A DNA stretch of 64,000 bases from NCBI GenBank assembly GCA_973895155.1, contig OZ316894.1, positions 1,876,457 to 1,940,456 of the forward strand. Direction: 5' to 3'. Every line of letters starts with the position of its first letter. The first letter of the stretch is position 1. This document shows positions 3,639 through 53,308 of the stretch, piece by piece. The translations under genes were made by a program, and so were the position numbers. The DNA is from Marsupella aquatica (lineage: Eukaryota; Plantae; Marchantiophyta). Under the pieces are notes generated by a model. The model was not told the origin of the DNA and made no database searches. It worked only from the letters and a program-made list of their open reading frames with translations.

Positions 3639-3699
3639 GAGAAACCTCAAAAGAAGGAAGCCGGGAGAGGTAAAATGATGAGAGTATTGATCAAATAAA

Positions 3700-3710
3700 G
3701 GCCCGTAACC
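3700..3710 (-). other. primer binding site, GGTTACGGGCC (half-tRNA-iMet type)
   Basis: The minus strand reads CA-TA-GGTTACGGGCC, closely matching the GGTTATGGGCCC PBS of copia-type elements, ~60 bp upstream of the gag ATG. Confidence 0.65.
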
Positions 3711-3712
3711 TA

Positions 3713-6625: not shown

Positions 6626-6971
6626 TAAAGAATACTATTCATTAACACGCAAAGTAGTACTAAAATAGTATCCAAGCAGAGTCCACCTGCCTTGTCACGA
6701 CTAAACAAATGGGTTTTGCTAAAATTTTGTCACGAAAACGCAATATTCCTGAAGAAAACCACCGAATCAATCATGAATACAAAAAGGGACTTAGAGGGAC
6801 AAGTGCACTCTGCAGATCAGTGCAGGAAGCTGACGATGACGATGTTGTAAGACTACTTCGATCATGCTCTTTGTCTCGAGAGTATTGTACTTTTGAAGTG
6901 TTCTCCAAGAGACCTGCACACCGTTCCTGATCGAACTGCAATCGGATGTGAGCTTTAGCAATAGGATTTTC

Positions 6972-19632: not shown

Positions 19633-20056
19633 TAATTCCTAAACTTTCTGTAATTTTTATTCAAAGAACATTCAGAATTTTTAGAATTTTTTTATTAAAA
19701 TGAATGCTGGATAGTTTGGTTATAAACTAAAAAAACTTATATAATTTGGTTTTCATCAAACTTTTTCATACCAAAATATTCAAGTTATATTTTTGAGTTA
19801 AGAGCTACTATAAGAGTTGAGTAACAGGAAAGTAACATTTCATGGTAGGTTGGATAAAGCGATTATAAAGAATTAAAAATTTGCCTTATAAAAAGCAAGG
19901 TTGTTGCACTGTGCAGATGAGTTTGATCAGTTTACGGGTTTGATCAATCATGCTCATTGTCTCGAGAGTATTGAAGTTTTTTAGTGTTCTCTAAGAGACC
20001 TCAGACCGTTCCTGATCGACATCCAGTCGGCAGTAAGCTTTAGTAACAGGATTGTC

Positions 20057-22858
20057 ATGGAAAATTTTCAGTTTCATTTCCGTGGGCAGAAGATAGACTT
20101 GCGGGGGGTGTTTCTGTCTTCTGCCATAGCAGTTTCGGTGGTGCTGGTAATCCACTACAAACTGAAAGGCCGACGTAGAAGCCTGGAAAATGATCGTCGA
20201 TTGCCTCCTGGACCCCGTCCATGGCCCATCATCGGGAATCTGGGGCTACTGGGACGTCTTCCTCATCTGGACTTTGCCAAGCTTGCGAAGGAGTATGGAC
20301 CTATCGTTTACTTGCGCCTGGGCACGGTCCCCACTCTCGTCGTCTCTTCCCCCAAAATCGCTGAAGTGATCCTCAAAACAAAGGACCATATCTTTGCCTC
20401 AAGACCAAACTTCGTTCAGGGCGTAATTATGGGGTACAATAGGCACACTATAGGCAGCGCGAGTCACGGACCGTACTGGCGGTACGCGCGTAAGATGATC
20501 ACTGTGGAATTGCTGAACGACAAACGACTCCAACAGTTTCAGGTACATAGCTCTTGGCTACGACATCAGCTTTAATTTCACGTCCATGGTTCACTGGACT
20601 GGCAAATCTGTCACGTTGGGTTTTTATAATTTGAGACCTTCTATTTTCATTTCCTTGCTCTGTGAAATACGTTCGTTCTAGAACTCTGAAGTTTTATTGG
20701 CTGCGGTTCATTTTGACGTCTGTTGTGCTAATGCTAGTCTGTAAAATAAATTATGTGATCTGCCGTCATTCGTTGGAATCGATGACTTTGCTTTGGTCAC
20801 TTCTGGCATAAGAGAAGAGAAGAGAAAAGTTTAGTTATGTACATTCATTTGGCTACATGTCTTTTGGGGGAATAGAAATGGTAATGTACAACAGTGTAGA
20901 GTGCCTACAGCTAACCTGCTAAGTCTCTGTTATTCTGTCCAGAGCCTGCGGAAAAAGCTGGTCATGCGTACTCTACAATCTATACTTGAAGAATGCAAAA
21001 TGGGAAAAGATGTGAATTTACACATAAAATTCGGGCTGATGACAAAGAACAACATCACTCAAATGATGATCAAAGAGAGCTTCTTCGGGCCCAATTCAAG
21101 CGCATCCAATATGAAAGAAGCTGCCGAGTACGATGAAGTCATAAATGATCTCGCCCGGTTGATGGGCGTTTTCGACTACGCAGATTACGTCCCATTGCTT
21201 CAGAATTTTGATCTACAAGGCTACCAAAAGAAAATGCAAAAAGTGCAACGAACGAACGACGTCTTCATTGATAAAGTAATCGACGAGCATCGGCAGGTAG
21301 CTAGTTCCAAGTCCTCTCGGGAGCTCACCAAGAGTGACCGGCAGGATTTTATCGATGTGCTGCTGACTCGTCCCAGCGAAGTCGATGACAAGCCTCTTAC
21401 AGAAGATCAAATCAGGGCCATCTTGCTGGTACAGTGAATCAATCGATTCAAATCACCACTATACTCACCGGTACCTCTATAATTCAGTTGGCGATAACAT
21501 ATTTCGCGCTGAACAATATATATGTCACAATGCTTACTCCATTGTTTGCCTATATTTATCCATCCTTCAAGGTGCTCGCAAACTTTCGTTTCTGTCTAAT
21601 TGTGTGCAAGATTCATATATAGTGTACCTCCTCACCAAAGATAAGTTACTTAACGAATGATCGATTGTAGGCGTGATTATGTAGATGGCAGGGGCAAGCT
21701 TGCATTCATATACGTACGGTAAACTTTACATAACCAACGCAAGCGAGTTAATATATGGCAGTACGTTGAGGCTTTCAGAAACTTACTCCCAATGCAAGAT
21801 CATTACTGCTGCTAATGATCCTGGTCGAAACTCCAGGGAGCTATGCACTTCTTTGCTCTCATCAAAACAAGATCGACTCCATAGGCGGTCGGGTTGAAGT
21901 GGTTCATATATGGCTGAAGCTTCTCATCGGGATAAGCCATGGGTTTATGGTTTAGAGTCGGGTAGAAACTGTCTCATGGCTGGTTGGAGGGCGGAGTATT
22001 TCACCGAGAGGCGTTGAAAGTATTTCATGTCCAGAAGAGGGTGCCCTCAAAGCTTGTGTACAATTATTAAATGAACACAATTTGTGTGGTCTTAAGTCGA
22101 AGGAATTAATGTAGTTCGGGGAAATTAATTAATTATGCAGTCCAGGATTGAGCTGATGCGTTGTTGATGTCCAATCATGCATCTAAAGTTTGCCTGTGGA
22201 AGTGCAGGGCTCCGTCGTGGCAGGGACGGTCACGTCAAATAATACTCTGGAGTGGGCAATGACGGAGCTTTTGAAACACCCGGCGGTTCTGAAAAGAGCC
22301 CGAGAGGAGCTGGATACCGTCGTGGGGTCAAACCGACTTGCGCAGGAGACCGACATTCCCAACCTTAAGTACCTTCGCGCTGTAGTAAAGGAGATCTTTC
22401 GGCTGCACCCCGTCCTTCCAATCCTGCTTCCCCACTATAGCATGGAATCATGTGAGGTAGCCGGGTACCACATACCGGTTAATTGTCAAGTGTTCGTCAA
22501 CGTCTGGGCTATTGGGAGGGACCCTGAAGTTTGGGAACGTCCTTTGGAATTTGATCCGGAGAGGTTCTTGAAGAACAATATGGATACCCTTGGGTTGGAC
22601 TTCGAGCTCCTACCTTTCGGCTCAGGCAGGAGAAGCTGCCCAGGAAGAGGCATCGGCCTCCTCATGGTGGAGTACACACTGGCGGTGCTACTTCACGCTT
22701 GCAACTGGCAACTTCCTCCAGGAGTCAGCCCCAAGGATGTCGACCTTGGAGAGGCGGAGGGATTGACTTGTCCTAAAGCTATTTCTCTTGAAGCGACCGC
22801 ATCTCCGCGCCTGCCCGTTGAGACCATCTATGGTGACAACATTTACCCCTCCTACTAA
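20057..22858 (+). CDS. cytochrome P450, CYP71 clan, copy 2; exons 20057-20542, 20943-21428, 22208-22858 (~540 aa)
   Basis: Same exon structure as copy 1 and a near-identical protein: AGTVTS, KEIFRLHP, DPERF, PFGSGRRSCPG. Confidence 0.95.
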
Positions 22859-24958
22859 GGTCTCTTGAACCAGGGGCTACGCTACTCGCATGGATACTTC
22901 TATACAATCTCAATATATGGCACATGGTTTTCCATAGCTAGAGCCATGTAAATCATGAGGCGAGATTTCTTCGGGATCGCTGATAATTAGAACAGTAGTG
23001 GAAAGCAAAATTATAATATAGTGAGTATAGAAGGAATGGCTACCAAGTGCATTGGTGGACAACAATATAAGAATGATGCTGACGAGAGTAACTATGTGCC
23101 TGGCCTTTGTAGGAGAATGCTTGCTTATAACAACGTAGTATATAATTTATTTATTGTCGAAAGACGTGTTAGTAACTTGGACGTGATGTCTTTTCTCTAA
23201 CGACGTGTTGGTACTAGGAAGTGTAGGTTGGATGTCTGAGTAATTTGGATGTGTAACTTGGATGAGTGCATTCAGCGCTAGTTGAGTGCAGATGCAAACC
23301 TCTTGCCTTCAATTTAGGATAGAAGGTACTCTACTCAAGACTTCAAACATTGCTGTGGGTAGCAAGACGCACTCGTAATGATTTATTTTAGGGTCCATTT
23401 GTCGCTCAATTCATGCTCCTTCACACCAAGTCTCATTTTTTGCTATCACCTCTTGCTCCATCTTGTCTGCCCGGAGCACCGGCCATTGCGCCAGGATTCT
23501 TCCTCCGGTTAAAAAATTCCTTGCATGAGCAAAATTTTTGCTCACATGACCCTTAATTTTTCTATATATCCAAGTGCCCCTGGCTAACAAGAACTTGCAG
23601 GGTTGATAACATACATTTTGAGATTCATCTTAACATACATTTTTGGGACTCATCTTTTTGCTGGCTACCCATCTGGAGTTAAAAAAAACACAAAAAATAG
23701 AAAAGGCAGGAAAAAGCAAAAAAATAATTAAAACTAGTATCTCCCTAACAACACTCTCCTTAATAACCAAAATTCATGTTTGCTTGCATTATACAACACC
23801 TCCTTCAGTTGACACTCTCAGATGTCACTCTCCTGGTTAAAGGCTATTCACCCTTCTTAGAGCCAACTTGCATGCATGTCATCCGCCGTTTACATTTTGG
23901 CCCTAAACCTGACTGAAGGGCAGCATACAAATGGCTTAGAGCATCCCCACTGGATATGCTAAACAGTAGTCTGGGGGCTTTTTCGTGTACTTGTTGGTGT
24001 AAAATGTGTTACTTTTCCATTTGCCACCCGGGCCTTCGCAAAAACAAAAGCACCATTTTAAATCACCACTTTTGGGGACCCGTGCAGCATTGCTGCCGAG
24101 TTTGGCAGTGCGGGGGGTTGACCCGCTCAAAATCGCCAAATACATCTGGCCGACAGCCTTCAGGGCTCAATTGGAATTTAACATGTGGTCGGCCAGAGGG
24201 TGAGTTAATTTGCACTTCACAGTTTGGTGGTATGAGAACCTTTGACTGCAGCCAGTGTCCTGAGTGGCTTGTTGATGATGAGAGAGTGCACAGAATAGTT
24301 TTCATATAATATCCAGTTCTCCCTATCTCCAATCCACAATTTTGTGATAAGGACAACACTAGTACGGGGCTCCCACTGGATATACTTGTAAAAACCAATT
24401 TAGTGCCTGAAGAGAAAAATAGAGGAGAATGGGGAGAAGTTGAAGCACCTGCCTTCTCAACTTCATCATTTGTGATCCCCTTTGTGGTCACAGGTATTGG
24501 GCGGTCCCTTGTAGGCCCAATGTCTGGCAATTCCTCCTAATCAGCGACAAAGGGTGCTTACGTACAATGGCATCATCACTAGTAGCTACATCTTCAGTAG
24601 CCTTCCAATGTGCGTACGTCCAAGGTCGATGATGTGAGTTTATTCTCTGGATTGTCTCCACCAGGCAAGGGATTTGTTGGACGGTCGATCGATCTCATTT
24701 TGACCCATATCATTGGGATGAAGTGGAGGTAAATCCCCACCACTATACCTGCCCCGGTACCCGCCACTGTAGGAAGTAAGCTAGATCCACTACTTTTGTT
24801 CCACTATCATCTAGATTTCTGGTCATCCCATCCTATGGATCATGACATAGTTCGCCTTCAACATCATCCTCATCATTCTTCACCCAGATACACATCTTCC
24901 TTGACAACTCCTTGACAACTCCTTGACATCTTCCTTGACAACTCCTTCACCAAGGCTC

Positions 24959-28093: not shown

Positions 28094-29039
28094 TCAATCT
28101 TCAGTTTCATTAGTGTTAAGGGCAAGCGGCATATCGACAGTCTCCCATGGTTTAAGTACAACCTGGAGTTGGTCAAGAGCACTACACAATTGTCTTCGTT
28201 TCTTCTCAGAACTGCAGATGTCAATCATTGCCCTGAGATGAGTTTCTGTTTGCCGAAGGACGACCCAACCGGGGAGGCGACCCAAAAACTGAGAGTAAGT
28301 AGCGTCATTCCGTTCTTTCCAAATGCTGGAGCACATCTCCATAATCAATACCATCGGGCCAGGTTTCCTTTTATGCAACTGCACAGCAGTAATGATCGCT
28401 TCGTACAAAGATCCTTGTGAAATCTTCCAATCTCCAGCTCGTTGTAGAACACGTTGGACCTCTCCCCATCTACCAGTAACAGTAGGACAGCTGAAGAACA
28501 TGTGTTCAGTGTGCTCAAAATGAGTTTTACACTTAGCACATAAGCCATCCAAAACTCCCCAGTGACTAGCCCTGCCATTGGAGAAGAATCCATGATTCAA
28601 CAGTCTCCACAGAAAGAATCTCACCTTGGGGAAAGACCAGCCTCCCCAGATTTTCTTCCAGTACTGCTGCCAGTGCTGTGAAGAGCTGACCTGTCCCCAA
28701 CGCCGGTTCAGCTTAGTGACATCAAGCTCCCTGGTTAGGGTGCATTGGCTCCAAGTCCTGGTTGAGAAAGACCAGCCTCTATTCTTCCCCCCAGTCCCAT
28801 TGCCAACCGGCACAATCCTGCAGCTCAACCATGGCAATTTCCGAAAAACATTGTAGCTTGCTATAGAAAATGCTGAAAGCTTCGTTACCAATCCTCCTAG
28901 TGCTCCGGGTCCGACAACAGATCTCATCCTCCGGGATCCACCTGCCAAGCTGAGACCTGAGATCAAGCAGAGTCCTAATTCTACGATTAGCCAGAAACCT
29001 CCTCAAGTCCGTGCCCTATTGTGTCGTGGTTTGGGTGTT
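28094..29039 (-). pseudogene. LINE ORF2, 3' part (zf-RVT domain)
   Basis: WKKIW..PKVRFFLWR..CAKC..EHMFFSC..IWKERN. It rejoins the 5' part in frame once the inserted transposon is removed. Confidence 0.88.
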
Positions 29040-29360
29040 AACAAGAAGCCTTAAGGGATGAGTCCAAAGCCTTATTTCTCTTTTCAAAATCTTCATGATA
29101 TTAAAAAGTGTATACCAAAAAACCACCAAAAAATGGTATGTATTTTCCAAACTAGACTCAAGAGAATTTTACCACCAAAATCTAAGCATATCTTATATGA
29201 TATTCTCACAATTGTATAAACCTTGAAATATGCACTTTATAAAAGTAATCAAAATCAAACTCATCGATCAGAGTTTAAGTCAAACTCAAAGTTTTACAAA
29301 ATATAACCCAACTTAAGCCCAAGTGGTTTCAAATGCTACGAGTCCCTCTATTTATCTAGT

Positions 29361-32300
29361 CTAATCCAAAGGGACCGCTTCCCCTTCCTCGGTTCCAGAA
29401 GTCCCTGTCGTCAATTCTGGAACAATTGTGGCATCGTCAACCACGCTATCCTCTCCGGCCTGAGGAATGTCTTCCTCACTCTCCTCATCCATCTCCCCCT
29501 GTCCGTCTTCCTCTTCAATGTTATCTGCAAGGTTAAGAATCCTCCCTTTCAACACACTGCTCTGTCGCTCGTCAATCTCAATGGCAACGCAATGTCTCCC
29601 CATGGCCAAGGAGGAGGTTGTCCCAGTCCCTGATCCTGAACAAATATCCAAAACCCAGTCTCCAACCTGACTAAAATGACTCACTTCCCAATCTAACAAT
29701 GCACGTGGTTTCTGATAAACATTCACTGCCTTGTTATCCCCGTTGTGTTTCAGCTTCTTAGTCACAGCTGCGCATACAACCACATTGTTCCTTGATTCAT
29801 TTGTGTCAAAATTGAAGTGCTCCAATGACCGTTTACCATCCTGGCTGTGAAAGCCAATTGTAAAGCACTCAAAGTTGCTGTTCAATCTTGGTCCACCAGC
29901 ATTCTTCACATTATCCTTAACCCTGAAAAGTCACAAAAAGTCAAGGAGTTATTTAAACTGAGAAACATGGTTCATGAAATCATGAATAACTAATAGTTGT
30001 TTTTTTCAAAAACAAATATTTCTTACCACACACAATTCTGGAACCCTCCATTACACTCCGCTTTCAAAACGGTCTTGATGGCCTCATATTGGTCAAGGTT
30101 GTGGTGAATGATAATACGCCACAACTTTGCAGTAGTAGCCACCTTGAACGATTGGACCATTTTTGTGATCTCCTCAGTTCCCCATCCAATAGTGTCTTCA
30201 TGAAGACATCCAGGCAATGCAAACCCGTAGGGAATATCCACTAAAGCTAATGTGTAAGCCCGACCCGGAACCACCTCATGTAATCGCTGAGCATCATGAG
30301 TAAAAATATCATAGTGCACATCACCAAACTCTGGATGCTCAAACGAATTTGGATGAAGTTCCCCCTCTTGGGTTTGCCGACTAGAAGTCTTCATGGATAG
30401 CCAATTTTGGGCTTGCACAATATGCGCATTGAATTTGTCCGGGAATGACTTGAGATCTTTGCCTTCCTCATCTCCCTTCTTTTTCCGGGAGGTGGTATCT
30501 TTCTACAAAAAGGAACTATAGAATTAGAAACAAGGATTCCAAATATTAAATGAATTCAAACAATCATTCGAAGAAAGGTGACAGAATCTTACCCATGTCT
30601 GGAAAACAGGTACGAAATTCTTAAGCACATTGTCTGTGCAATGCTCAGGGTACTTGGTTTTACAACCTGACCAACTCTCCTCGTGTAGACACGTGAGGAA
30701 GGCCTTCTGCACCTGCATCTGAAATTTGTGTCGAGTAAATTCGTGACCCATTTCCTGTAAAGAGAGTTCTTTAGTAAGAACTCTCTGTAACACTGGGCAA
30801 ATCATATCAGGATCTTTCAAGGCCTGCATGTGTCTCCACTCTGTTAATTTCATGTCCTCATAAGGCAATTTGGCATCTCCAGACTTAGAGACTTTCTTCT
30901 TGCCTTTGTCTCCTTTTTGACCTTTGATCTCACACATCTCCCACTTGTCACAAATCTGCCTCACAAATGACCACACAGGATCTTGTCGGAATGCCAACTG
31001 AAATAGGTTATCATTGGCATTAAGAACCTCAGCATCCTTTCGTACACCCCAATCCTTGAGATTGATTTCAGTAGCACACTCTTTCTTGAAATCCTGGTTG
31101 GACGACAATCCATTCTCAACAAATCTCATGTGAATATAATTTACTCTCTGGATTGTCGTCATCTGTTGTCGAAATTCAGAATCAATATTGTGACTCCACG
31201 CCAGGTTTCTTGCCTCTTGCACACTCAATCCCGCAAATATCCAAGATTGCACTCTCCGAAATGCCTTGTTGTTAGGGAACTCAAGAGCAAGGTCTGCTTT
31301 GGCACAGGCTGAATGGTTGCCCCCAATCACATAATAATGGTAATCAGCTTTCCTTGAAAAATCAAAGTCTTGCCTAGTAGCACACTCCTTCGGATCCACC
31401 AAGAGGACAAACGGAGCTGCAAGTGGACTGGCACCTACAGTCTTCATCCGCAAGGTCAATTGGGTCAAGAAATATGGTTGGATGTGTCGGACCTGGTAAA
31501 TGGGCAAGCCCATAGCCTTCTCTCTCACTGGAGGGTAAAGTTGACCAATGTCAACGGTCACGGTCTCCTCTTGAACACCACATCTTCCCAGAATCTCCTC
31601 CTGGTACAATACCCGTGCATCCATTGACATTGATTGAGCCTTTTGCTCCAAATGCGTTGGAATTTTCTCCAAAGTCTTCTTTTTTGACTTTGTAGCACTG
31701 GGCTCGGTAGGCTCAGGAGTCATAGCAGGTCGCTTCTTTGAAGAAATGCGAGTTCCAGTCGTACCTTGTGCCGACCCACCAGTCAAAGCCGTTCCCTGGG
31801 ATGATCTGCCAACTTGAGATCCCCCTCCAGATGCTGCTGCTTCCCGGGAGGTTGTAGGCGCTACCACGGTCAAAATATCATTGGGTAAAATGCTAGGCCT
31901 CGATCCAGAAGGAACACCGGAAGCCCCAGATTTGGGTGGACGACTTACTCCCTTCTCTGCCGACCTTTTCCGGAGAATCTCTCTTGATTTTCGGATTGCA
32001 CTCTTTAAAGTGCTAGCGTGAAATTCAAACACAAAACCGGAAATCTTTCCCGCGACGTCGTGGTAACGTTCCTCACTCGAAAGAGACTTGACAGTCTCAA
32101 TGATGCTATCGATGTCCTCATCGAGATAGCAGGTGGCAGCCGTTCCAGAAAACCTCTCCACATCCACGACAATCAAAGTTGATGTTTCCTTCGTTGTGAT
32201 CAACATGTTCACAACTTCGTCGCCCCGTCGAAATACATCGATGCGGCCGTAATTTACCCACCCTAATGCCCCCGATGGAAGCCCCTCAAATACACACAGC

Positions 32301-32422
32301 ATTAGGAAGGGCTTCTTCCATGTTTCCGTCCCTAAGGAAATCGTCCAGGATGAGTTGTGGAAGTCCGTCAAAGGATGGCGCGAAAAGATGTCATCCACCA
32401 GCTCTTCCTGCGACATTGTCAT
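29361..32422 (-). CDS. ParB/Srx-like domain + beta-class amino DNA methyltransferase (N6_N4_Mtase-like); exons 32422-30593, 30502-30027, 29922-29361 (~955 aa)
   Basis: GT-AG introns 30592-30503 (phase 0) and 30026-29923 (phase 2) join three ORFs into one open frame of 2868 nt. ParB-like motifs: YQVR, YVIGGNHS, EARNLAWSHN. MTase motifs in beta order: IV LALVDIPYG, WVK, YQKP, I VLDICSGSGT, GRHCVAIEID. Confidence 0.85.
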
Positions 32423-33201
32423 GTTTTTGCCTGATCTTCAAACCTGAGAACATACCACAAAATCAGTCCACTTCAACCCCAACCTGCGAGACAAAGTGCC
32501 ACAGAACCAAGGAATGTGCCAACAAATGGCTACTAAAACCGTGTCCTTACGGATCTAACAACGCTCTCGGCCACCCCAGGACTCCTATCATGAATTCATG
32601 AAGGGAGTCTCCCTCTCGCTCCGACCTTCATGAATTCATGAAGGGAGTCTCCTCTCTCTTTGCTTGTACACCTCGGTGATGCAGAAGGGTATTTAAAATA
32701 GGGTTCGGAGGGGGGTGACGTGAAGAAATCACCCAGGGCCTAAATTACTACCTAAAACAGGGTCGAAATGAAGTGCGACCGCGACAACTCGCGACACGTC
32801 GCCGATGAGTGCTGAAAATGGCACGAAATTGGACAGCGAGATTGTTTTTCACTCTTTTACAAAGGAAATCCAAATGACATTGAGTGAAAATGAATGGGCT
32901 GCCCCGTGTTCCTTGGTTATACATACTAATCACGGATCAGGCGCGACTTAGTAAAATTAACCCAGAATCATGATAAATCAATGTTTTTGGGCCAATTATT
33001 CATGAATATTTCGGGGTATTAACGGGAAAAAGCTTGCAAATTTCATGAATATTTGATATTTTTGAAGTTAAAAAGTCCCAACAATCCGTGAAAAACTATA
33101 AATAGGCTCATTTATTCATGACTCTTGGTCATTATTTTGAGAAGATTTGTTAGATTTTACTGATTTTCTGAGTTTCTTGTCAATTTGCACTAGTTTTTCC
33201 A
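32423..33201. promoter_or_regulatory. divergent intergenic/promoter region of the transposon with palindromic repeats
   Basis: Lies between head-to-head ATGs (32422 minus, 33202 plus). It contains a TATAAATA at 33097-33104 and a 25-bp direct repeat tcatgaattcatgaagggagtctcc at 32588 and 32628. Confidence 0.55.
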
Positions 33202-35438
33202 ATGGCGGCGTGTTACGAATCAGATGATTATTCAGATGGAGTTTCTGATGATGTTTCATTGCCGGATGGCCCCTGCACAGTGGTTGGCCCAGATATCCCT
33301 GGAATAACTACTGTTTTAGATATGCCACCCCCCACCCCTATGAGCAAGTTAAAACGTAGTCCTTTACGACTTGCAATTAGTGGGAAGAAATCATTGGTCG
33401 GTGGTAAAGAGAGGTCAGGGAGCTCCTCTGACTCCTTGGAGAGTATTGGTCCCCCTGGACGTCAAGTTGTATCTCCTTTGTCACCAACAAAGGACAAATT
33501 GGGGAGTAATCTGGAAGGTTCAATGCCTATTTGGATGTCTGGGAAACGGTCTCATGAATTCATGAAGACTGGATTTGGAAAGACGAAGAAGGCACTAAGT
33601 GGGGAAAATGACAGAGATTTTTGCAGTCTCCAAAGTGTTCAGCGGCTGAAGCAAATGCCAAAAAGTAAAACCTTTGGTAAGCCAACGTCGGAAACATTTC
33701 ACAGGGGGATGAGGGAAGAAACTAGACGACCAGTGTTATTGAACAATCCAAAGAACGTGAGAAACTCGCGAAGCATCGTAAGAAATGTTTTTCAAATTCT
33801 GATAAATATTTGGGAGTTGTCATTGATGGGATGGATCAGAAGAAGACAAGGTTGCCTCATTGGCCGCGGCCCCCAAAATCGGTGGACGAAACATGTTTGA
33901 TCCAAATGCACGTTGTCGGATGCCTGGTTTTCAATGGTGCATTATTTTCAAGAGTGTTTCTTAATTATCCTGTATTGCATAATGATGGAAACTTGACAGT
34001 CACAATCCTGCAAAGGGTGTTTCACAAATGGGAAGAAAAGCCTGGTGGCTTGCCGCCTGTTCTCTATCTTCAACTTGATAATACCAGTAGAGAAAATAAA
34101 AATAATTTACTCTTTGCCTATCTTCATATGTTGATTCGAAGAAAGGTTTTTCGGAAAATCAAACTAGGATTCTTGTTGGTTGGACACACACACGACCAAA
34201 TAGATCAAATGTTCAGTCGATTTTCTAAACGACTAGCAAGGTTTAAGGCATTCACATACGAAAGCCTATGTGATATTATTTGTGAATCATATCAACCCCA
34301 ACCAAATATCACTCTTTTAAAGGAAACATATGATTTCCGTCAATATGCCTTCTCAGATCCACCTTTAGTCATTGAAAGGATTCGAAATGTTACCTTCCAC
34401 CACCAGTACAAATTTGCATTTGACAAGTTGGAAAATCAAGTTCCAACCCAATGGGGGAAGAAGTTTTCCACGGACTCAACTTGGAAACCTGACGGAGGCG
34501 TGAAATTTTTGAGGGAAGAGGAGCCAGAAAAGGTGATGGGTTGTGCTCCCGGATTACCCCTTTTCAAAAAGGGGGATAAGAACGTTACAAGGACTCAACC
34601 AAATATGTCTAGTTCTTCAAGAATGACTTTGAAGGAGATGGATGATTCGTTAAATGAGATTCAAAAGGGAATACTTGCAGTTGAAACTTTATTCTCAGAA
34701 GAGGAAGTGAACTGGTGGAGAATGTTTTTTGAAGAGCAACGGGAATTGAATAAATCTTTGCTCCTTGATCAAAGACCATTGATTTTCCCTTTTCAATGGC
34801 CACGCTCCCAAAGGGAGATTGCTGTTGCTGCTGAAGTTCCCAGAGTCCTTGTCAATGAAGAGGAAATTGAAGAGAGAGTATACGGACCTACCAGAGATAT
34901 ATACGTGGGTCCTTATCGGAATCAAGGAAAGATAGATGCAGAGAAGGAGAATATGGAAGGAGACTTTTCGGATCTTGAAGTCAACACTTATATTTCTGTT
35001 GCTGGAGAAGAATCGGAAACATTTTGGGTGGCCAAGGTGGAAAGAATTGACCAGCGCGACGAGTTCAACATTCCAAAAATGATTTATGTTTTATGGCATG
35101 CTACAAAAACCGGGTCAGATCCTTGGAAAGCCAAGTACTTACCAGAAGTCTTAAACTACGAAAAGAAGAAAAGTGGTCGTGGGAAAGGAACTTTGAAACC
35201 AATATGGTTTCACCAAGAGCTTGATTTATCTTCAACGACTGTTTTTGCTTACAACTTCATGTTGACAAAATCTGATACATTGTACAAAAAGACAGTAGAT
35301 CGAATCAAAATCCGATTGACTGAATTTTTGGCAGAAGAGAAAGAGCAAGAACAAGAGAATGGATCAACTAGAACCCCGCTAGGAGATAAATCTAGGGATA
35401 TTTCGTTTCAAGAATTGAGGACTTCTGGATCTGAGTAA
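33202..35438 (+). CDS. Sola-like DDD/RNase H-fold transposase, with the N-terminus out of frame with the catalytic core
   Basis: The core frame is open from ~33726 to 35438 and contains YLGVVIDGMDQ, LYLQLDNTSRENKN and FLLVGHTHDQIDQMFS (three candidate catalytic Asp). The upstream ORF 33202-33900 is in another frame. It lies inside the TIRs. The superfamily assignment is by motif resemblance. Confidence 0.75.
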
Positions 35439-35997
35439 TGAAAAGTAGTTATTGTTTGTGACATTACCATTGAAAAACATGGATAACTTGAAAATTTACA
35501 AATTTTCAAAATGCCTTTACCACTTATTCATGAATTCATGGTTAAAGTTTCTTGAGAAATTTGTAGTTTAATATTATCTTAGTGGGTTGTGTTTCAATTC
35601 AATTAGATGGTGTCATTTCTATTCTCCTTGTCTTCTTTTCACAATAATGTGTATCAGGTTAAGTTGTAGTAATTTATTTTCTGGTTTTTAAATGACAATG
35701 GCTTTTGGAGGTGATTTAGTTGTTGTTTCAAAAGACACCTCGTGTAATTGTGAGACCATTGTAGATAATAGTGTTGTATTTGAGATCATTTATTGGTGGA
35801 ATGTAACTTCAGATGAATTTGGTCATTTTTAGGTGTCAAAACATAGCTAGTTTATGTCATATTTTGTTCGCTCCATATTTTTGCTCTAAAATAGGTGCTA
35901 ATTTTTGCACTTTTTTTGACTTTTCGTTGTTTTTCTGATTTTTTGGCTAGAGTTCCTAAAGTATGGGCTTGTTACTCATCATTTAAGGCTTCTTGTT

Positions 35998-38924
35998 TGT
36001 TGCGCAGGTACAGTAGCACAACTTGTTCAATGGAGAGATGGGATGGAAGCTTCCCTTGTCCAAAGTTGAAAAGAAGGTGGCTACTCGCATTGTTCCAACC
36101 CTTAAGCAGACCCCGCAGTGTAGGGGAGCCCTGGATCTTCAGCTCATCACCCTGCAGCAAGGCTTCAGTAACAGTCCACCTTCTGCGCTCCTTCTTGCCC
36201 TGTCCAGAGTTGCAGCACTTCTTAATGATCTCCTGTGCCATCTTCACCCATTCCCTGTCCGCCCCAATGATGAGTTTAGAGATATGCCTCATCTTTAGTG
36301 CTTCGGCCTGTTCTTCAAAGGGCTGAATTCCCAGTCCCCCTTGGCCCTTTGGTGTAAGCAACGACAGATTTTTTCCATCTCCATAAATCCAGTCTTGTAG
36401 AGCGACAATGTCATCAGGTGATAGGTTGGAATTGACCTCAAGACGTGCTTCATCAAAATAGCTCTCCCAACCATAGTCAGACTCCGATAAGTCCAATGGT
36501 TCAGCCGACAACGCAATTTCCCGACCAGGAAGGCAGCGGCATGAGTGGGCGCACCTTATACCCAATAGGGCACCCCAGATACTCAATGACTTCCCCTTCC
36601 TTGGCGATTCTGCATCCAGTGTTCTTCATCCACTCTGGGTAGTGCCCTTGCATAAAGTAGATCGGTATAATCTGAGATTTCTTCACATTCAAAAGAGCTC
36701 CAAAGATGTTCTCATACTGTTGCACTGTCTTCCTAGCTTCCACAAAGTCATTCTCCGTTGCTACCAAGAAGAGGCCTGTGTCATCCGCGAACAGTTGATA
36801 GCAAATGTTGTTGTTGTTGGCAACTTTCAATCCTTGTATATGCCTTGCCTCCAGTTGCTTCTTAAAGAGTGCCATCAGTGGTTGAGTCGACAGAGCAAAG
36901 AGAAGTGGGGACAAGGGGCAGCCTTGCCTCACCCCCCTCTCCAACTGAATGGGTTCTGTGAACCTCCCATTAACGTGAACTTTGGATTGAGTATTAACCA
37001 CTAGCCCCTGCACAAGCAGAATAACATGCTCATCAAAATTCATCGCCCTCAGCACCGCCCACAGGAAGGAATGAGCCACCCGATCGTAGGCTTTGGTGAA
37101 ATCCAATTTGAGGAACACAAGTGGCTGCTTGCTGAGTGGCGCATGCTCCTGGGCCATCTTGAAGGTCAACAGGTTATCCAAAATGTCACGGCCTTCCAAA
37201 AAGCCCGTCTGTTGTGGATCCACCAACTTACTTGCCACCCCCTTGAGACGATTGGCCAGCAGCTTTGCAATCAATTTCTCAGTCAGGGTAAGCATGGTAA
37301 GAGGTCTCCAATTGCTCAGCTCCTACGTGTCTCCATTCTTAGGAATCAACTTAATGACACCGGCGGAGGCCCTAGTAGTAAGCTTTCCATCCTTCCAATA
37401 TGCATGGATCATAGTGACACAGGCTGGCTTCATGAAATCCCATCCCTTAATCAACATTTCTACTGTCATACCATCCAGCCCAGGGGATTTCTCCTTGGGC
37501 AGGGTGAAGACCATCTTTTCAATTTCCTCCTCACTAGGTAGTCGCCCAATTTTCTGGTTGTCAGCTTGTGTAGCCTTAGTAGAGATCAGCCCCAACGCCT
37601 CCCCTAGAGCATCCTGATGCGTCAGAACGTGTGTGTCTGCGGTGTACAATTTTGAGTAAAATTTATGTATTTCCCCAAGGATAATGGTCTCATCTTCGGT
37701 AATTTCCCCATTCCCTCTCTTCAGCTGCTTGATGCTCTCCTTAGCATGCTTCGCTTTGAGCTGGTTGAAAAAGTACTTGGTAGGAGCTTCCCCTAGAGTT
37801 AGCCATCTCACCCGACTTTTCTGTCGCAACTTGATGGCATCCGCTTTAGCCTGTTCCCTAGTTCTATCCTCAATCCTATCCTCAATCCTGCCAAGCTCGT
37901 CCAACTGGTACTTAGAAGGATTTGCCCCCAGCTCAGTTCTGAGCTTGTTCAGCTCATCCCCTAGGTGCCCAGTGTTCCTTTTTGCCGCTCTCTTTCGCTT
38001 CTCCCCCTGGAGTAGCTGTTTAGTGGCCCCCCAACAGAGGTCCCAATTCACCCTGGGATCCCGGTTCTCCACCCAGTTTTCCTTCCATACCCGTTCAAGT
38101 TCCTGTTTCATCTCAGGAGACTCAACTAATTTTGCATCCATTTTGAAATAAGTGGCCTTCCTATGTGCATTCAAGGACAACTTTTGTCGTAACACAAAGG
38201 TGGTCACCACTGGGACATGGTCGGAGATGGTCTCCCTACCGTCATGCATACAAGATTTCACATACTCACACCATTGATTTCTATTACTGCTGTAGTTGCG
38301 ATCCAGACATGACTGGTCGTAGCGGTCAGACTTCCTAGCTTGCCTGGTGTAGTATGGACCAGTACGAGTGCCTGCACAGAGATAATTGTCCACCAAATCT
38401 AGGTGGTCCACTAATCTGTTCTAGGCTCTAGCCTCTGAGCCATGGATGAAGGCCGATGGGCCCACTGCATCATCGAATAAATCGGTCATGTTCCAATCTC
38501 CCCCAAAAATCCAATTCGACTCCTTCAGGTTGTTGCGTAGCCACTTCCAGAGAGAGGTCCTTAGACGTCTCTCGTTCGGGGCGTAAATAGAACCCACACT
38601 GATCTCTCCCACGCAAGTCTTAATAGTTGCCCACACAAAGGATCCGTCCCCTTTACACCCGTGTTCCACAATCTGGTATTGCTTGGGGATCAACAGAGCA
38701 GCTCCAACCTTTCCTTCCCCCTTCTGATCTACTAATTTAGTCCCTTCATGGTCGATGAGACCCAGTTGAAAAATAGCCCGCTGCCTCTTAACCTTAAGTT
38801 CCTGGAAACAACAGATAGCCAAACCAAGCGTGTTGTTGTGAATCCATCTGTTGATCTGTTTAACCTTCAAAGGGTCTCCTAGCCCCCTCACATTCCATTG
38901 GCAAATGGTCAATTCGTCATTCAT
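35998..38924 (-). pseudogene. LINE ORF2, 5' part (APE endonuclease + reverse transcriptase)
   Basis: WNVRGLG, FQELK, IYAPN, GGDWN, SDHVPV, KSPGLDG, LDFTKAYDRV, GVRQGCPLSP, LFADD, YLGCP. It contains stops and frameshifts. Confidence 0.92.
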
Positions 38925-40810
38925 CTAAGACCATTGTTATTTTGGCCCACTGTCTGTCTGCCTAGGCCGGTCCCCCTCTCTCCCGAAGTTGATTTGATCT
39001 CCGTCCCGTGGACTCCCTTCTCATCCACTCCTTTCCTAGGTCCCCGGTCCAAATTGTTGTTGGTGTTAAGCTTGGATTGTTCATAAGTGAGCATCCTCGG
39101 TCCAGTGCCGTCGGGTCTTTCTGTGACATGGTACGGAATTTCTTCCGGGAGAATTTCAGCCATTCTTTTATCACTGGCGAAGGTTGGGACAGCCCCAGTA
39201 TGGGTACTCTTCCTGGTTTTTTTGGGTTGTTGTCGTGCTAGTGTGCCAGTCTTTGTTGGGGATGATTCCTTGCCTGATCCCCCAACATTCGGTGGGGATT
39301 GTGCTGCTTTCCTAGAGTTCTTCACTACCTAAGTATCCATAGGTTCTGCTCCCTCAGTTTCCGAAAAGCTGACCACAAAACCCGGGGGTATCAGGTCCAT
39401 AGTCGCTGAAATATTACTGGGAATAGCAGGTTTCAAGCCTTCTTCACCTGGCTCCATACTGGCTTGCTGCCTGAGGTTGTCGGGTGGGGTTCCTGTGTGG
39501 ATCCTTAAGTTTCCTGCTTCGTTTCCCACTCCTGTCTCCATCATAGCCGGATTGGACGCTGGAGCGATCTCCCCTTCTTCCAGATCATTCAACATAGCCA
39601 GAGCACCAAAAGGGTTCTCACTCTGCCCGAGATTCGTTGCTGTTTCTCCTGCACCCTGCTTCCCTTTGTGTGAAGCCCTGGTTTTCACTATTGTGTACCC
39701 TTCTGTGTTTCTCTACTCCTGCAGGATCCCCTGTTTGTCTGTTGGTGTCGGGGGTGACAATTCTGGCTGCTGTCCTGCTGGGCTCTTTCTCAAGCTGGGC
39801 TTGTTGGGGCAGTATCTTGCAATGTGTCCTCTCTGCTTGCAAGCAAAGCAAGCGTCTGGCAACGTCCTGTATATAACATCCACCCTGTATCTACCAACTC
39901 CTGGTATTGTCAGATCAATATATTCTACTAGATCCTCATTCAGGTTGCAAAGCACACATCCACGTATATGTGAGAATTTGCTTCTAGCCCTAGCAGTCTG
40001 TGCATACAGCACCTTACCAACTCTAGCTAGCATCTGATTAGCATAGTACTCAAAGGCTGGGTTGAGCAAAGGAAGATCTACCCACACGGGTGCTTTAGTG
40101 GATCTCATTGCTTTGGCATCAAAATCAGGTGTCCACGGCATAGCAATGACCATCTTCCTGCCCATGCTAAGATAAGGCTCAAGTAGAATCGAGGTTTGGT
40201 CCTCTGGAGTGGATACCACAATCAGAAAAGTGTACCTAGCCAATACTTTGATTTGTTCAATGGCAATATTCATTCGAAGCCCAATGACCTCGTGGGCCCA
40301 TTCTTCAAAGTAGTCTCTTGATGGGTTGAAATCTACTGTATACATTATGATCCCCCTATTTTGTAAATGCAGGATACGACTCGCTACAATATTCTTTTCT
40401 ACAACCAAAATTTCTGACCTCATTCCTGGTGATGGATGCTCTGGGACCTGCGGCAGATGTGCCAGTTGCTCTCGCAGATCTTCATTGGATACATATATCC
40501 CGGCTTCTTTATCGAGGTTGTTATCGTAAGGGTTATCCTCCTCCTCCTCCTCCACTTGAAAGTCCACCAGGTCATCGTCTTCCGCTGGATCCCACACTGG
40601 GTCTTTGAACCCAAAGCTACCCCCCCTTTGTTGGCTAGTGCCAGCTGCTGCCATCGCGTACGAGCTTGCATTTTCCTCTGCCTGATGCGCCTGCCCTCTA
40701 TATGATATTCCATCCTGGCAATCATGTGTGCGTGGGCTTCCGTTGTTGTCTCTGGCTGTGCCACTAAGGGGAATAATTACCTCCGAGCACATAGTGTCCT
40801 TGCTCAGCAA
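38921..40810 (-). pseudogene. LINE ORF1 (DUF4283-like region + CCHC zinc knuckle), interrupted
   Basis: APVWVDLP and CFACKQRGHIARYC motifs. It continues through 39329-39688 and 38921-39325, and its stop overlaps the ORF2 ATG (ATGA). Confidence 0.85.
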
Positions 40811-42399
40811 TCCTTGGGCCCCATGCTCTAGTTTCTACCTTCAAGTGTACGTATATAATTATGTAAAAAGAAATGTCTTGAACATGATGTAGGATATAGT
40901 AAACACTTAATTAGAATATGCTTAGTTTGAGCCTCTCTCACTAGAGTGTACAGTCATAATTATATTAATATTCATATATCTCATTTTGACCCTTGATTAT
41001 CATTGTAGATATTATGACATTTTAAATTTATGATTTGAGTATTATTGACATCTGATTCTTGGACCAATTTAATTTTAATTTAATTTGTGCATTAGTTACA
41101 ACATATTATTTTATTTAATATTTATTGATTTTATTTTAATATCTATATTTATAAAATTTTAAGGGAAATCTGTGAAACCCCACAGAAAGGAAGAGTCGGC
41201 CACAATAATTGAACCCAACACCTATCAATCTACTCAAGTGAGTTACCACAAAGTCATGCCTCTAACCAGATTCAATTTAATATTAAATATTAAAGATTTG
41301 GGAATCAAAAAGTGTATTTATTTGGGGTGAAAAATATTCATTTGGGGGCTCATTTTAAAGAGTTTTGGGTTGAGAAAAAACAACTTTAGTCTTCATTTCC
41401 TAGACTTTTAAAAGTCAAGTTTTAATGAATACACTCCAGTGATATGTATCTACTCCTTTGGCCAAATTGTTGGTATTGGTAGAGCATCATCCCATGCCAC
41501 CTCCCAACCCTCAAAAGAAAAATGATTTATTTGGCCTCCTCAGAATCTCAACAATAAAAAAATTATTTTATATTATGTGAGGGAATGACTGTGCAGGTTA
41601 CCCTATTTCCTAGGACTCAGTTTGACTTGGTACCCTCCTTTTGGCAAAGGCAAGAGTCTGTCATACTCCATACCCCTATCAGGTAGGGCACTCTCATGCC
41701 TGCACAAGCAATCAAGAAATGAACACTGAGAGTCAAAATCTGGCCAGTGGACATAGTTTATAACTTGGGGCGCAAGATGTAGTAAGGGTTCTTCACATCA
41801 TTTAAGAGATATGCAGTTTTGCAGTCTCATTCATAAATTATCCTCAGTGGGTTATTTGTAGGGTAAGCCATTTCTTAAGGGGTTTAGTTGGGCTGTATTC
41901 CCCTAAGGAGTCACAGGCCATGGCCCCAAAGAGAGGATGGGTTACCCTTGGGGTTACTTCACCTTATGAAGTTGTTGTATGCTTTGTGTAAACACCCCTA
42001 CTAAACCACATCCTCTCAAAGGGATAGGAAGCTAAAAAAAACACATGACAAATGATGTATCCTGTGATGACATATGGCACTCTGAATGATTATCCCTTAC
42101 TTGCTTTATCGTGACTTCTAAGTACTTCCCTAATAGAACAACTCTTAATTCGTTCTCATATGATTGAGTTAATTTATGGAAGTGACCCCAGTGGTTACCT
42201 GAGTGGGATCAGATTGTGGCAGTAACACAGATATTTAAATGAAGGAATCGCGAGTCTGGTAGATGAGAGCCTTGTGCTCCATATTAACCGTTAATGAAAA
42301 TACAAACTAATGTCACAACAAAGGTGTTAGGACAATCATGGGTATATGCAAAAATCAATCAATCTCAAGTTCTAGATGTCATTCCAGAGTCCGTCGACT

Positions 42400-49630: not shown

Positions 49631-50622
49631 CCATCGCTTTCTCCTCCAATTGGTTGTCGCCTTCGGGAGCTGTAGCCGCACGCTCAATCCAGAGGATGAA
49701 TCTTCACTCGCGTCGACTCCCCAGCGGACAGCTAGACGGGTGCTTCAGCTTTGTTTCTTACAGTTCCTGCACCTGCTCAACGGTTTCCTAGGCTAGCGGT
49801 GGCGCCGTTTCTCGGCCTGATGCGGTGGGCTCTCTCCATCGCCTCCCCTTTCTTTTCACCTGCCTCGGTTGGGCCTTTTGTCGCTTCTTGATGCGTTTTT
49901 GCTTTCATCGGATTGCGACCTATCATGTCTGCGTTGAGAGTGTTGGCGCGGGGCAAGCGCCCAGCCCCACCCCACACTTCTCCCCCATCCTCCCCTCCCC
50001 CTCGTGGTCGTCTTCGTGTTTGCTCTTCTTCATTGGATCTCTCTCATCTTCATGATGACCCCATGCCCGATGCTCTGCCAGTCCCCCCGTCTACTGCCCA
50101 CCCCATCGTCGCCCTGGCTCCTCTCCCCACCCCATTCCCTCTCCACCCATTCATCATCCTCCTCCGGCCTCCTCGTCCACATCTGTTCCACCCCCACCTC
50201 TTGTCCAGTCTTTCCCTGCTCCCTCCCCGGACGAGCGTCCCCTGCATACTTGTCCTGACTGTGGATGGGTTGGCATCTCCCTCCCTCATCATCGCGGGCG
50301 GGGCCGGTGCCATCGTCGCCAGCAAGCCCAATCCCAGCCTCAGCCCCCTATTGACCCGGTTAGCTCTGCCCCTCCCTCCTTGGAGACTCCCGAGCAGGCA
50401 TGGAGTTGGGTTCGCACTCTTGACCCCCTTCCAGTCTACCATCCAAGGTACATTAGACCTCGCCTTTATAACCACATTCCTCTGGCGCTGCGCCCTTTAG
50501 TTCGGTCCTCCTTGTTATAACTCATGCAGCTTATCTTGGCGCATCCTATGGAGGTCTCCTACTGGTCTTTACTGATGCTTTTTCCATAGTGGTCTCTTAC
50601 CCTCCCTAGTCATGGTGATCGT

Positions 50623-53308
50623 GTGGGTCACCGTGAGACTGCCTCTCGTATCCATCGTTTTTTGCAGGGAGATTGGGAGCAGCTTCAGGAAGAGTACTTT
50701 CTTCGCGCCCGGTCTTTTACCGCCCGTACTTTGTCTGACCCAGCCCGCCACTCTCATCCCCCTGAGCATAGACGTCTTCGTCGCTCTTGTCGTTTAGCCC
50801 AGGCTGGTGAATATCGTCGGGCTGTCCAGGCCCTTTCTCCCACCACACCAGCCCCCCCTGGCGAGGTCACCTCATCGGCCCTTCAGGATCTCCATCCGCA
50901 GCCCCATGATCAGCTCCCTTTGTTCGTAGAGGATTTTGAGCCTGAGGAGGATCTTCAGTTTAGTAGGGACCACTTCACCTATGCCTTCCTCCATGCCCTG
51001 CGTTGCGCTGCTGGTGGCCCCTCTGGCTATGTCTTTGAGCATTTTTGGGATTTATTCCCCCCTGAGGATCCTCAGTTTGGTTTTCCAGTTTTCTTCTCCT
51101 TTTGCCAGTGTATTGCAGCCGGTCGTTTGCCTCCTCCCGTCTCTCGGCTCTTGAGTGCTTCTCGTTTATTGGCCATGGCTAAGTCTTCGGCCAATTGCTA
51201 TTGGGGAGGTTTTTCTTCGGCTTGTGTCTCGCACACTTTCCTCGCAGTTTCGCTCTGCACTATCAGATCATCTCTCTCCACATCAGTTTGCAGTTGACGT
51301 TCCTGGCGGTTGTGAGACAGTTATTGCGGGTACTCGAGCTACCTTGGACCTCCACCTTGATTGGGTTGTCCTCCAGGTTGATGTCTCTAACGCTTTTAAT
51401 ACGGTTTCTCGGGCAGCCATTTTTCGTGCTTTGAGGGCGGCGGATCCAGACATCCAGTCCCTGATCCCCTTTGTCCGTTGTTTTTATGGACTCAAGGCCC
51501 CACTCTTCTATAGTCATCACTCCTCTATAGGTGTGTATACCACTCTTTCCTCTGCAGAAGGTACTCGTCAGGGTGACCCTTTGGGTGGGCCTCTTTTTGC
51601 CATTGCCCATTTTAAAGCTTTACGGGAAGCCGCCTTGGCCCACCCCCAGTGTATCTTCCCCTCCCTTTCAGATGACACCCACATCATTGGTCCTCCTGCC
51701 GCGGTTACTTTTGCCCTCGCCACTCTTTCCACCCTTTTGATGGGCCTCGGTTTACGAGTTCAGCCTGTGAAGAGTCGTGCATGGAGTCCAGCTGGGTTAC
51801 CCTCTGATCTTGCGCTTCCCCCAGGGTTCTTACATCCAGCCGATGGTCTTTGGGTCCTTGGCTCCCCAGTCGGTACCGCCTCCTTTTGCTCCTCTTTCAT
51901 CGCTGACTCTCTACAGGCTGCCTTAGCCTCTACTCCTATGCTCCCTAAGTTAGCAGATTCTCAGGCAACATTTGGGATGTTGTTGAGGTGCATCCACCCT
52001 CGTGCGTCTTATTTGGCTAGGACGCATCCCCCTACCGAGGATCTTTGTCTCCACCTTTGAGCATTTGATGTCTCCATTCGTCAGACCCTGGCCTCTCTTT
52101 TGGGGGCCGGGTACGTTGCTCTCATCTCCGTGGCTTCATCGACAACTCAGTCTTCCTATTTTGCAGGGTGGTTTTGGGCTTACTTCCATTGAGAGCCTTG
52201 CACCTTTGGCCTTTTTGGGTGCGTGGGCGGCCACCTTCTCATTGTTGGCCGATTGTTTTCTTATTGAGGATCACCCTTTTTTACTTTCATCTCTCATGGA
52301 GGTAGAGGAGGGTTCCCTTCCGTTTCAGGTTCATTTGCGCGCAGCGCGGTCCTCATTACCAGATCCCATTCGCGCCGCGTTACCTTTTTTTCAGGAGTTT
52401 TTATCCTTGGATCCCGTTTGTCTTCAGGCAACCTCGTTGGGCGTATGCACGCTTTCACCCTTTCCAGCATCCTCTCTGAGGCACCTGACACGGACCAAGC
52501 TCGGATTCTTTCTTCCGGAGGGAAGGGCACAGGTGGATGGCTTCAGGCCAATCCAGTCATTCCTCATTTGCGGATGTCTTCAACGGAGTTCTCCACAGCC
52601 ATGCGTCTTCGTATGGGGCTGCCCCACCCACTTCTTGCAAGTTTACCCCCTTTTTGCACTTGTGGGAAGCCTTGTGATGCCACAGGTGTCCATCTTCTTC
52701 GGTGCAGTTTGGGAGGTGAAACCATTATTGTTCACGACGCTGTGCGAGATGCGACTGCTCAAGTTCTCTCTGGCTCTTTGGTATGCGTGCGGCGGGAGGT
52801 GGTACTCGAGTTACCTGGTCCTCCATCACAGCGGTTACGGGTGGATCTTACCATGGTCCGTGAGGGTCAACGTACATTGGCAGATGTAGTGGTGGCAAAC
52901 CCATTGCGCCAAGACATCATTGGGACAGTAGCAACTACGGCAGGGGCAGCAGTGTCACGTGCGGCAACAACAAAGGAGGCCAAATATGCTGCACGAGCTT
53001 CATCCGACAACTTCCTCCCCCTTGCTCTAGAGCTATTTGGGCGTCTTCATCCTTAGTTTGATGGGCTTCTTTGGCAAGTTGCCCGGGATGTTCATGGCCG
53101 CATGGGTCCCACCGGACCCCCGCTTTCTATTTTGACCACGCACTTTCGCCAACGCATTTCAGTCACCTTGCAGCGTGCTCAAGTTCGGGCCATCTATCAT
53201 CGATCTCTTACAATGGGTGCTAGTGTGCCTCCGCAGCGGCTAGCTCCCCTAGAGGATGTTCTAATCCCACTTGTCGATCTAGTTTTGACCCTTGATGTGG
53301 ACCAGTAG
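50623..53308 (+). pseudogene. RT-RLE polyprotein of the CRE-like element (frameshifted)
   Basis: ORFs 50623-51297, 51155-52060, 52002-52889, 52418-53056 and 53102-53308 tile consecutive domains. Confidence 0.82.

Follow-up and report, generated by a model that had tools for sequence, protein, structure and literature searches.

Introduction

Sola1-1_Ec32, a 21.5-kb transposon of the brown alga Ectocarpus, carries an opposite-strand gene for a protein of 1,104 amino acids in which a ParB-like domain is joined to an N4/N6 methyltransferase, and the proposal has been made that this protein binds and modifies the element that encodes it (PMC12477816). Here we describe a Sola-like DNA transposon of 7 kb from a land plant, located in a 64,000-nucleotide stretch of the genome of the liverwort Marsupella aquatica (GenBank assembly GCA_973895155.1, contig OZ316894.1, positions 1,876,457 to 1,940,456 of the forward strand). 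This whole stretch is referred to as the window, and coordinates are those of the window unless another sequence is named. Judged by the published description of the algal element, both are Sola or Sola-like elements with a ParB-methyltransferase fusion encoded on the opposite strand (PMC12477816). The liverwort fusion, termed here the ParB-methylase, is accompanied by a defined and conserved 14-bp site, TCATG-N4-CATGA, whereas the main text on Sola1-1_Ec32 names no binding site and has no match for "palindrom" (PMC12477816).

Related arrangements are known from other mobile elements. Plavaka PAG3 of Bostrychia encodes a ParB-like accessory protein, and tandem inverted-repeat arrays beside its gene have been proposed as binding sites (10.1101/2025.02.11.637652). 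The liverwort element is similar in that ParB cargo is accompanied by inverted repeats; as reported, however, Plavaka PAG3 has a transposase of another superfamily, a ParB domain fused to a 2-oxoglutarate oxygenase and a methylase on a separate gene, and its sites form arrays, whereas those described here are dispersed at promoter, TATA box and intron (10.1101/2025.02.11.637652). With the bacterial systems ParB/parS, Noc/NBS and KorB/OB the ParB-methylase has in common the modelled fold, a predicted dimer and palindromes with 7-bp half-sites (PMC11790492, PMC10419367), and with KorB the candidate control of promoters that lie on a mobile element (PMC11790492). Unlike these proteins it reads GxxSxxA, bears a fused methylase, has no ParA gene in its element and belongs to a eukaryotic host.

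In plants, the VANDAL elements of Arabidopsis encode the anti-silencing protein VANC and carry motifs particular to each family in their introns and intergenic DNA (PMC5735166). An accessory protein together with short, family-specific non-coding motifs that diverge between families is therefore common to both systems, but VANC motifs are reported as non-palindromic tandem arrays and act by removal of 5-methylcytosine (5mC) (PMC5735166), as opposed to palindromes and a putative bacterial-type methyl writer in the present element. The host gene MpDN4MT1 of Marchantia, likewise a bacterial-type beta-class amino-methyltransferase in a liverwort, has the motif TSPPY and writes N4-methylcytosine (4mC) at CG in sperm (10.1101/2021.02.12.428880); the window protein differs in its motif DIPY, its ParB fusion and its location in a transposon. 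ParB-linked methylases of algae and fungi have also been reported, without the present family in the text available to us (PMC4738411), and the available portions of PMC3627910, PMC12973397 and the Marchantia 4mC preprint (10.1101/2021.02.12.428880) do not describe the ParB-methylase family either. Our literature search, which lay outside Repbase, Iyer 2011 (ref. 50 in PMC12477816) and the algal supplements, found no paper on the motif or on a land-plant Sola element with a ParB-methylase. ParB-methylase cargo in Sola elements and inverted repeats beside ParB cargo are known from published work; the defined conserved site and the land-plant case are apparently new. Such a site makes the proposed self-binding and self-modification by ParB-methylase cargo directly testable, its natural spacer variants (AATT, ATAT, CTAG) provide a ready test of specificity, and it indicates where to seek non-5mC DNA methylation in land plants.

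Results and discussion

Enrichment of the site in the transposon

TCATG-N4-CATGA is a selected cis-element of the transposon. We consider it probable that it is a conserved operator bound by the element's own ParB-methylase, which would mark or shield the divergent promoter. An initial annotation made from the window sequence had reported a 14-bp palindrome and about 16 copies of TCATGA in the element, and its coordinates were all borne out: the exact 14-mer palindrome lies at 32588, 32628 and 33552, and the 16 TCATGA are at the places that it gave. Perfect 16-mer palindromes start at 32627 and 30193, and the imperfect 30-bp palindrome described for 32580–32609 is complementary at 26 of 30 positions.

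Enrichment was assessed against the 57 kb of flank in the window. The 6,958-bp transposon holds 16 TCATGA and the other 57,043 bp hold 23, so that the flank rate predicts 2.8 for the transposon (Poisson P 5e-8), in agreement with the two to three copies first estimated; Markov models of order 1–3 predict 3.5–4.8. The count for TTCATGAA is 9 vs. 2, and among the 8-mers of the transposon ATTCATGA ranks first (13 occurrences, 0.64 expected). When doublets and a 40-bp duplication were collapsed, 11 TCATGA events were left vs. 3.8 (P 0.002). Twelve of the 16 TCATGA fall in the non-coding 27% of the transposon (P 8e-5), and the divergent promoter contains 8, that is half of them, as had been noted. 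Contig depth peaks over 32580–32659 in runs X2, X4 and X6, a pattern that fits conservation among diverged copies; because contig depth does not count copies, however, the peak is given little weight.

Conservation in two diverged relatives

A metagenome scan for relatives yielded 2 of 124 candidate stretches, L001 (4,766 bp) and L002 (3,633 bp), each 65.7% identical to the transposon along some 2 kb of the methylase gene. Exact TCATG-N4-CATGA occurs four times in the window transposon, four times in L001 and three times in L002 (means over 500 shuffles of each: 0.01, 0.02 and 0.006, respectively) and is absent from the 57,043 bp of flank. Likewise, where two CATG lie at most 20 bp apart, the gap is 4 bp in 5 of 9 pairs in the window transposon, 6 of 10 in L001 and 3 of 3 in L002, as against 3 of 45 in the flank.

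The sites also keep their positions, and the check for conservation in other copies that the initial annotation called for thus came out in its favour. All three elements have a promoter pair, spaced by 40 bp in the window and in L001 and by 42 bp in L002, and a full site in methylase intron 2 that ends 32–49 nt before the acceptor. Two of the elements, the window transposon and L001, extend into the transposase gene. In both, the promoter pair lies about 550–610 bp upstream of the transposase start codon, TCATGAC follows immediately after a TATA-like box that they share, and the first transposase coding part contains full sites, read as HEFM in the window and HDIM in L001. Their promoters otherwise barely align (52.6% vs. 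48.6% for shuffles).

The arms are invariant in all 11 exact sites, and the spacers are lineage-specific: AATT in the window, ATAT/ATTT, and CTAG at all three sites of L002. In 8 of the 11 sites the spacer is self-complementary. Each element has its own favoured 7-mer, TCATGAA in the window (23 copies), TCATGAT, TCATGAC and TCATGAA in L001 (9, 7 and 6) and TCATGCT in L002 (8), where TCATGAN does not occur. Since its spacer is CTAG, L002 lacks TCATGA altogether and yet keeps three perfect doublets; the conserved unit is TCATG-N4-CATGA and not TCATGA, which corrects the initial annotation. The symmetric spacers and element-specific 7-mers together indicate a two-fold symmetric, element-specific reader. 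Among near copies, none of 40 listed variants (of 94) falls in the 52 motif positions, with 3.6 expected (P 0.019).

Two of the places first listed are doubtful as sites. The 16-mer at 30193 is indeed a perfect palindrome, but it and the TCATGA at 30294 are codons of exon 2 kept in neither L001 nor L002, and both are probably incidental for that reason; the 16-mer was likewise rejected as a parS mimic. GAATTC was rejected as a target, since no spacer in L001 or L002 contains it. The broader proposal, a cognate site for an element-encoded protein (parS-like, methylase target or transposase-binding), is supported by the conserved positions, invariant arms and lineage-specific spacers, and of its three options the parS-like one fits best.

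Further details of the relatives were noted. Both promoter sites of L002 (307–338 and 349–380) extend to 32-bp perfect palindromes whose outer arms differ. All three elements also have TGTA(T)ACA close to the promoter sites (window ~32665–32670, L001 1547, L002 392); relative to the pair it is on the transposase side in the window but on the methylase side in the two relatives, possibly as an inverted module. In L001 an in-frame stop (2851–2853) interrupts a methylase exon, so this copy is probably dead, yet its sites are retained.

The ParB-methylase

The ParB-methylase gene is intact, with three exons, splice sites and 955 codons free of internal stops, on the strand opposite the transposase. 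A model of the middle domain (predicted local distance difference test score, pLDDT, 76) gave 12 Foldseek matches at E ≤ 0.001. All 11 of the matches listed are ParB or Noc, the best being Noc bound to its site (E 8e-6, 287 columns). In VIA-align the model matched PadC (Z 8.8, root-mean-square deviation (rmsd) 3.1, 97 aligned) and KorB (Z 7.2, rmsd 13.9, 191 aligned), and in the predicted order, as in ParB, the N-terminal fold precedes a helical DNA-binding domain. Solved structures searched by sequence with the ParB part gave no useful match. Conservation is highest (0.82 identity over 12 homologs) in a block that coincides with what is presumably the recognition helix, which we placed from the general layout of ParB.

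The predicted homodimer scored 0.50 vs. 0.07 for the best control, with runs agreeing in at least 57% of contacts and pLDDT of at least 74. Of the solved dimers 21 of 30 reached this mark, and of the monomers none of 23. Among eukaryotic cases 17 of 29 did so, but where no solved relative exists just 1 of 7, and the result may therefore reflect the predictor's memory of ParB. The cytidine triphosphate (CTP) motif GxxRxxA reads GxxSxxA (GNHS(A/I/L)CA) in 13 of 13 aligned sequences, and the Chara homolog has Thr or Cys at the Arg position; as the arginine is missing, we do not class the protein as a CTP clamp. In Pseudomonas ParB, which binds 7-bp half-sites, a mutant of this arginine is reported to dimerise and bind parS without spreading (PMC10419367), and KorB R117A represses from near operators but not from distant ones (PMC11790492). 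The missing arginine thus points to a site-bound dimer and not to a sliding clamp.

The C-terminal domain is, from its motifs and profile matches, a beta-class amino-methyltransferase closest to adenine enzymes. Its motifs are in beta-class order, IV before I (DIPY 699, QKP 839, DICSGSG 861), and align to M.MboIIA, which its profile matched at E 2.4e-12; the stronger of the matches to solved structures were mostly adenine enzymes, and named N4-cytosine enzymes matched more weakly (E 1.5e-5). The catalytic motif DIPY departs from DPPY. The N-terminal domain of 150 amino acids (31967–32422, minus strand; pLDDT 94) is conserved in the family with a G-R-I motif, but found no clear match in Foldseek (best E 0.03, including DNMT1 RFTS at TM 0.25) or VIA-align (best Z 4.7, PH-like), none in Pfam or Atlas, and no longer homolog among 351 candidates.

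Named homologs include one from Calypogeia (62%) and others from Riccia and ferns, and related fusions occur in Chara braunii (P0169, where one predicted protein has two units), Ginkgo biloba (P0175) and Calypogeia fissa (P0009). Since homologous fusions are found in Chara, a liverwort and Ginkgo, the system may be of old age and wide occurrence among green plants. Fungal DUF3723 clusters are among the look-alikes in Atlas. In viral contigs none of 8 candidates was a relative of the ParB part and none of 70 a relative of the transposase, and prokaryote genomes gave no relative (0 of 18).

Proposed action of the ParB-methylase

We propose that a ParB-methylase dimer would bind the 14-bp palindrome through a helix-turn-helix of the ParB type, with single 7-mers of the TCATGA type as half-sites. 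Acting as a site-bound dimer rather than as a CTP sliding clamp, it would not slide, which would account for the dispersal of sites along the transposon. The bound protein would likely methylate the divergent promoter, probably at N6-adenine, or shield it. The outcome of binding is the least certain part of this explanation: given binding, self-marking that keeps the promoter usable against host silencing is by a little the likelier outcome, and auto-repression at the TATA-proximal and intron sites is only slightly less so. Taken as a whole, a private bacterial-style operator-methylase circuit in a land-plant Sola element, in which a ParB-derived dimer reads the family-specific palindrome and writes N6-adenine (or N4-cytosine) on its own element, which thereby escapes host silencing, with spacers that differ from family to family as a self/non-self code, is a tentative and rather doubtful proposal.

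Several points weigh against binding by the ParB-methylase. Just two diverged relatives were available, both partial and both methylase-bearing since they were found through the methylase gene. The variant test, built on contigs with 40 of 94 variants listed, is non-significant within each class (full sites P 0.12, half-sites P 0.17). The helix-turn-helix call comes from a fold match of low identity (10–14%) and from the general layout of ParB, and the KorB DNA-binding domain alone gives Z 4.4 in VIA-align. Observed/expected CpG is 0.60 in the transposon, 0.58 in the whole flank and 0.42–0.45 in the host long interspersed nuclear element (LINE); as transposon and whole flank are equal in this respect, these values give no clear indication that the transposon is protected from 5mC. 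Lastly, transposases can themselves be sequence-specific transcription regulators, as has been reported (10.64898/2026.08.24.746577).

Alternative explanations

Binding by the transposase, at autoregulatory or enhancer-like internal sites, would account for the lineage-specific spacers equally well, as would any element-encoded reader. It would also suit the half-site directly behind the transposase TATA-like box in both elements that reach it, and plant transposases are reported to activate cognate copies (10.64898/2026.08.24.746577). However, both terminal inverted repeats are free of sites; the closest are a half-site at 53 bp from the left end and, about 460 bp from the right end, a site with one mismatch, positions that do not fit transposase binding at the ends. 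Moreover, one conserved site sits in the methylase intron, and ParB cargo of another transposase superfamily also has palindrome arrays (10.1101/2025.02.11.637652). We regard this explanation as unlikely.

Somewhat less probable still is that the sites are a catalytic target only, a methylation switch at the adenine in CATG (two per site), with the ParB part not acting as a reader. Each arm contains CATG, the beta-class enzyme has intact motifs and the sites cluster in promoter and intron, all points in favour of such a switch. On the other hand, L002 excludes the plain TCATGA target of the initial annotation, CATG alone is neither enriched nor depleted in the transposon (32 vs. 35), and the fixed 4-bp spacing with symmetric spacers suggests a dimeric binder. 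Methylation at the sites can coexist with their being bound by the ParB-methylase.

Recruitment of a host transcription factor, for instance a plant factor reading CATG cores, would agree with the placement in promoter and intron and with arms invariant over long divergence. The host flank, P450 genes included, is nevertheless devoid of exact sites, the spacers change in concert within an element (as CTAG does in L002), which a host factor would not require, and the sites differ from the RY motif, CATGCA. We consider this highly improbable. The chance that the palindrome works by folding into a small hairpin of RNA or DNA (5-bp stem, 4-nt loop), for example in controlling intron 2 splicing, appears remote. 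The position of the intron site at 32–49 nt before the acceptor in all three elements and the extension of promoter palindromes in L002 and the window would fit, but hairpins allow compensatory change and the stems have none, most loops are themselves self-complementary, and extended arms are absent from L001 and from all intron sites. Hardly credible, finally, is an origin as by-products of CpG deamination of TCGCGA/TCGTGA, local duplication or chance: the promoter pair does share a 25-bp direct repeat and the coding hexamers at 30198 and 30294 are not conserved, but no site in any of the three lineages (0 of 11) has the CG form, the equally likely double-decay product TTGCAA occurs twice vs. 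16 times for TCATGA, the enrichment survives collapsing of doublets and duplication, and positions are kept where flanks no longer align.

Similar geometry in phage loci

A scan of viral contigs for the doublet-pair pattern returned 20 loci, none of which encodes a relative in tblastn with nine family proteins; they are unrelated phage sequences. The TCATG-N4-CATGA pair lies over a TTGACA promoter box in L003, L006–L008, L010, L011, L013, L014, L016 and L019–L022. Several loci are beside small Cro/CI-like genes, and of four neighbouring small proteins scanned two (one sequence) reached the HTH_3 cut-off. We take this shared geometry as an analogy only.

The transposon and its setting

The coordinates of the transposon and its features are collected in Table 1. 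The motifs IDGMD, LQLDN and GHTHD.ID, each bearing an Asp, are conserved across an alignment of 17 transposase sequences, and we take them to be the catalytic DDD. Together with the DUF7869 Pfam assignment, the terminal inverted repeats and a 4-bp target-site duplication, which is among the published criteria for Sola (PMC10741241), they fit a Sola-like DNA transposon. Contigs of run X2 show the empty site, with 29035 joined to 35998, and contig depth over the transposon is several-fold above that of the flanks, so the element is multi-copy. Beyond 33743, other copies (contigs of runs X2 and X3) carry different sequence, and full-length transposase homologs have a Cys/His-rich region missing in the window copy, which probably lost the middle of its transposase gene at 33743/33744. 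With an intact methylase gene beside a transposase gene that is probably internally deleted, this copy may be a non-autonomous derivative.

Table 1 Features of the Sola-like transposon, in window coordinates (TIR, terminal inverted repeat; SAM, S-adenosylmethionine)
Position	Strand	Feature	Remarks
29036..29039	.	Left target-site duplication, TGTT, 4 bp	
29040..35997	.	Sola-like DNA transposon, 6,958 bp	TIRs, TGTT on both sides, empty-site contigs, contig depth
29040..29071	+	Left TIR, 32 bp	84% complementary to right; without TCATG
29093..29098		Half-site, 53 bp inside left end	Contigs of relatives stop short of ends
29361..29922	-	ParB-methylase exon 3, QKP and putative SAM-binding DICSGSG	PF01555, E 1.6e-8
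29923..30026	-	ParB-methylase intron 2, 104 nt, one full site	Intron and site same in L001 and L002
29972..29985	.	Full site TCATG-AAAT-CATGA, methylase intron 2	
30027..30502	-	ParB-methylase exon 2, putative catalytic motif DIPY	
30593..32422	-	ParB-methylase exon 1: N-terminal domain, linker, ParB-like domain with predicted helical DNA-binding part	
32588..32601	.	Full site, first of promoter pair	Core of 30-bp imperfect palindrome 32580–32609
32628..32641	.	Full site, second of promoter pair	Spacing to first, 40 bp
32968..33048		Three half-sites (32968, 33000, 33043) upstream of transposase TATA box	L001: two, at similar distance
33096..33104	+	TATA-like box CTATAAATA of transposase gene	Identical in L001; putative role
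33108..33121		One-mismatch full site/half-site TCATGAC directly behind TATA box	TCATGAC likewise in L001
33202..33743	+	Transposase 5' coding part (MAACYE...)	Start same in L001; ends at probable internal deletion
33552..33565	.	Full site in transposase 5' coding part, codons HEFM	L001: HDIM twice
33744..35438	+	DUF7869 transposase, putative catalytic part, three conserved Asp motifs	PF25273, E 2.4e-51; alignment
35528..35541	.	One-mismatch full site downstream of transposase gene	
35966..35997	-	Right TIR, 32 bp	
35998..36001	.	Right target-site duplication, TGTT, 4 bp	

The insertion interrupts the host LINE (28094–29002 and 35972–40834, minus strand). Elsewhere in the window are a decayed copia element (1041–3779, minus strand) and a second reverse-transcriptase remnant (50590–53056, plus strand). 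A cytochrome P450 gene is duplicated (6858–9802 and 19944–22925, 88% identical), and both copies hold CATG-N4-CATG without the outer T and A.

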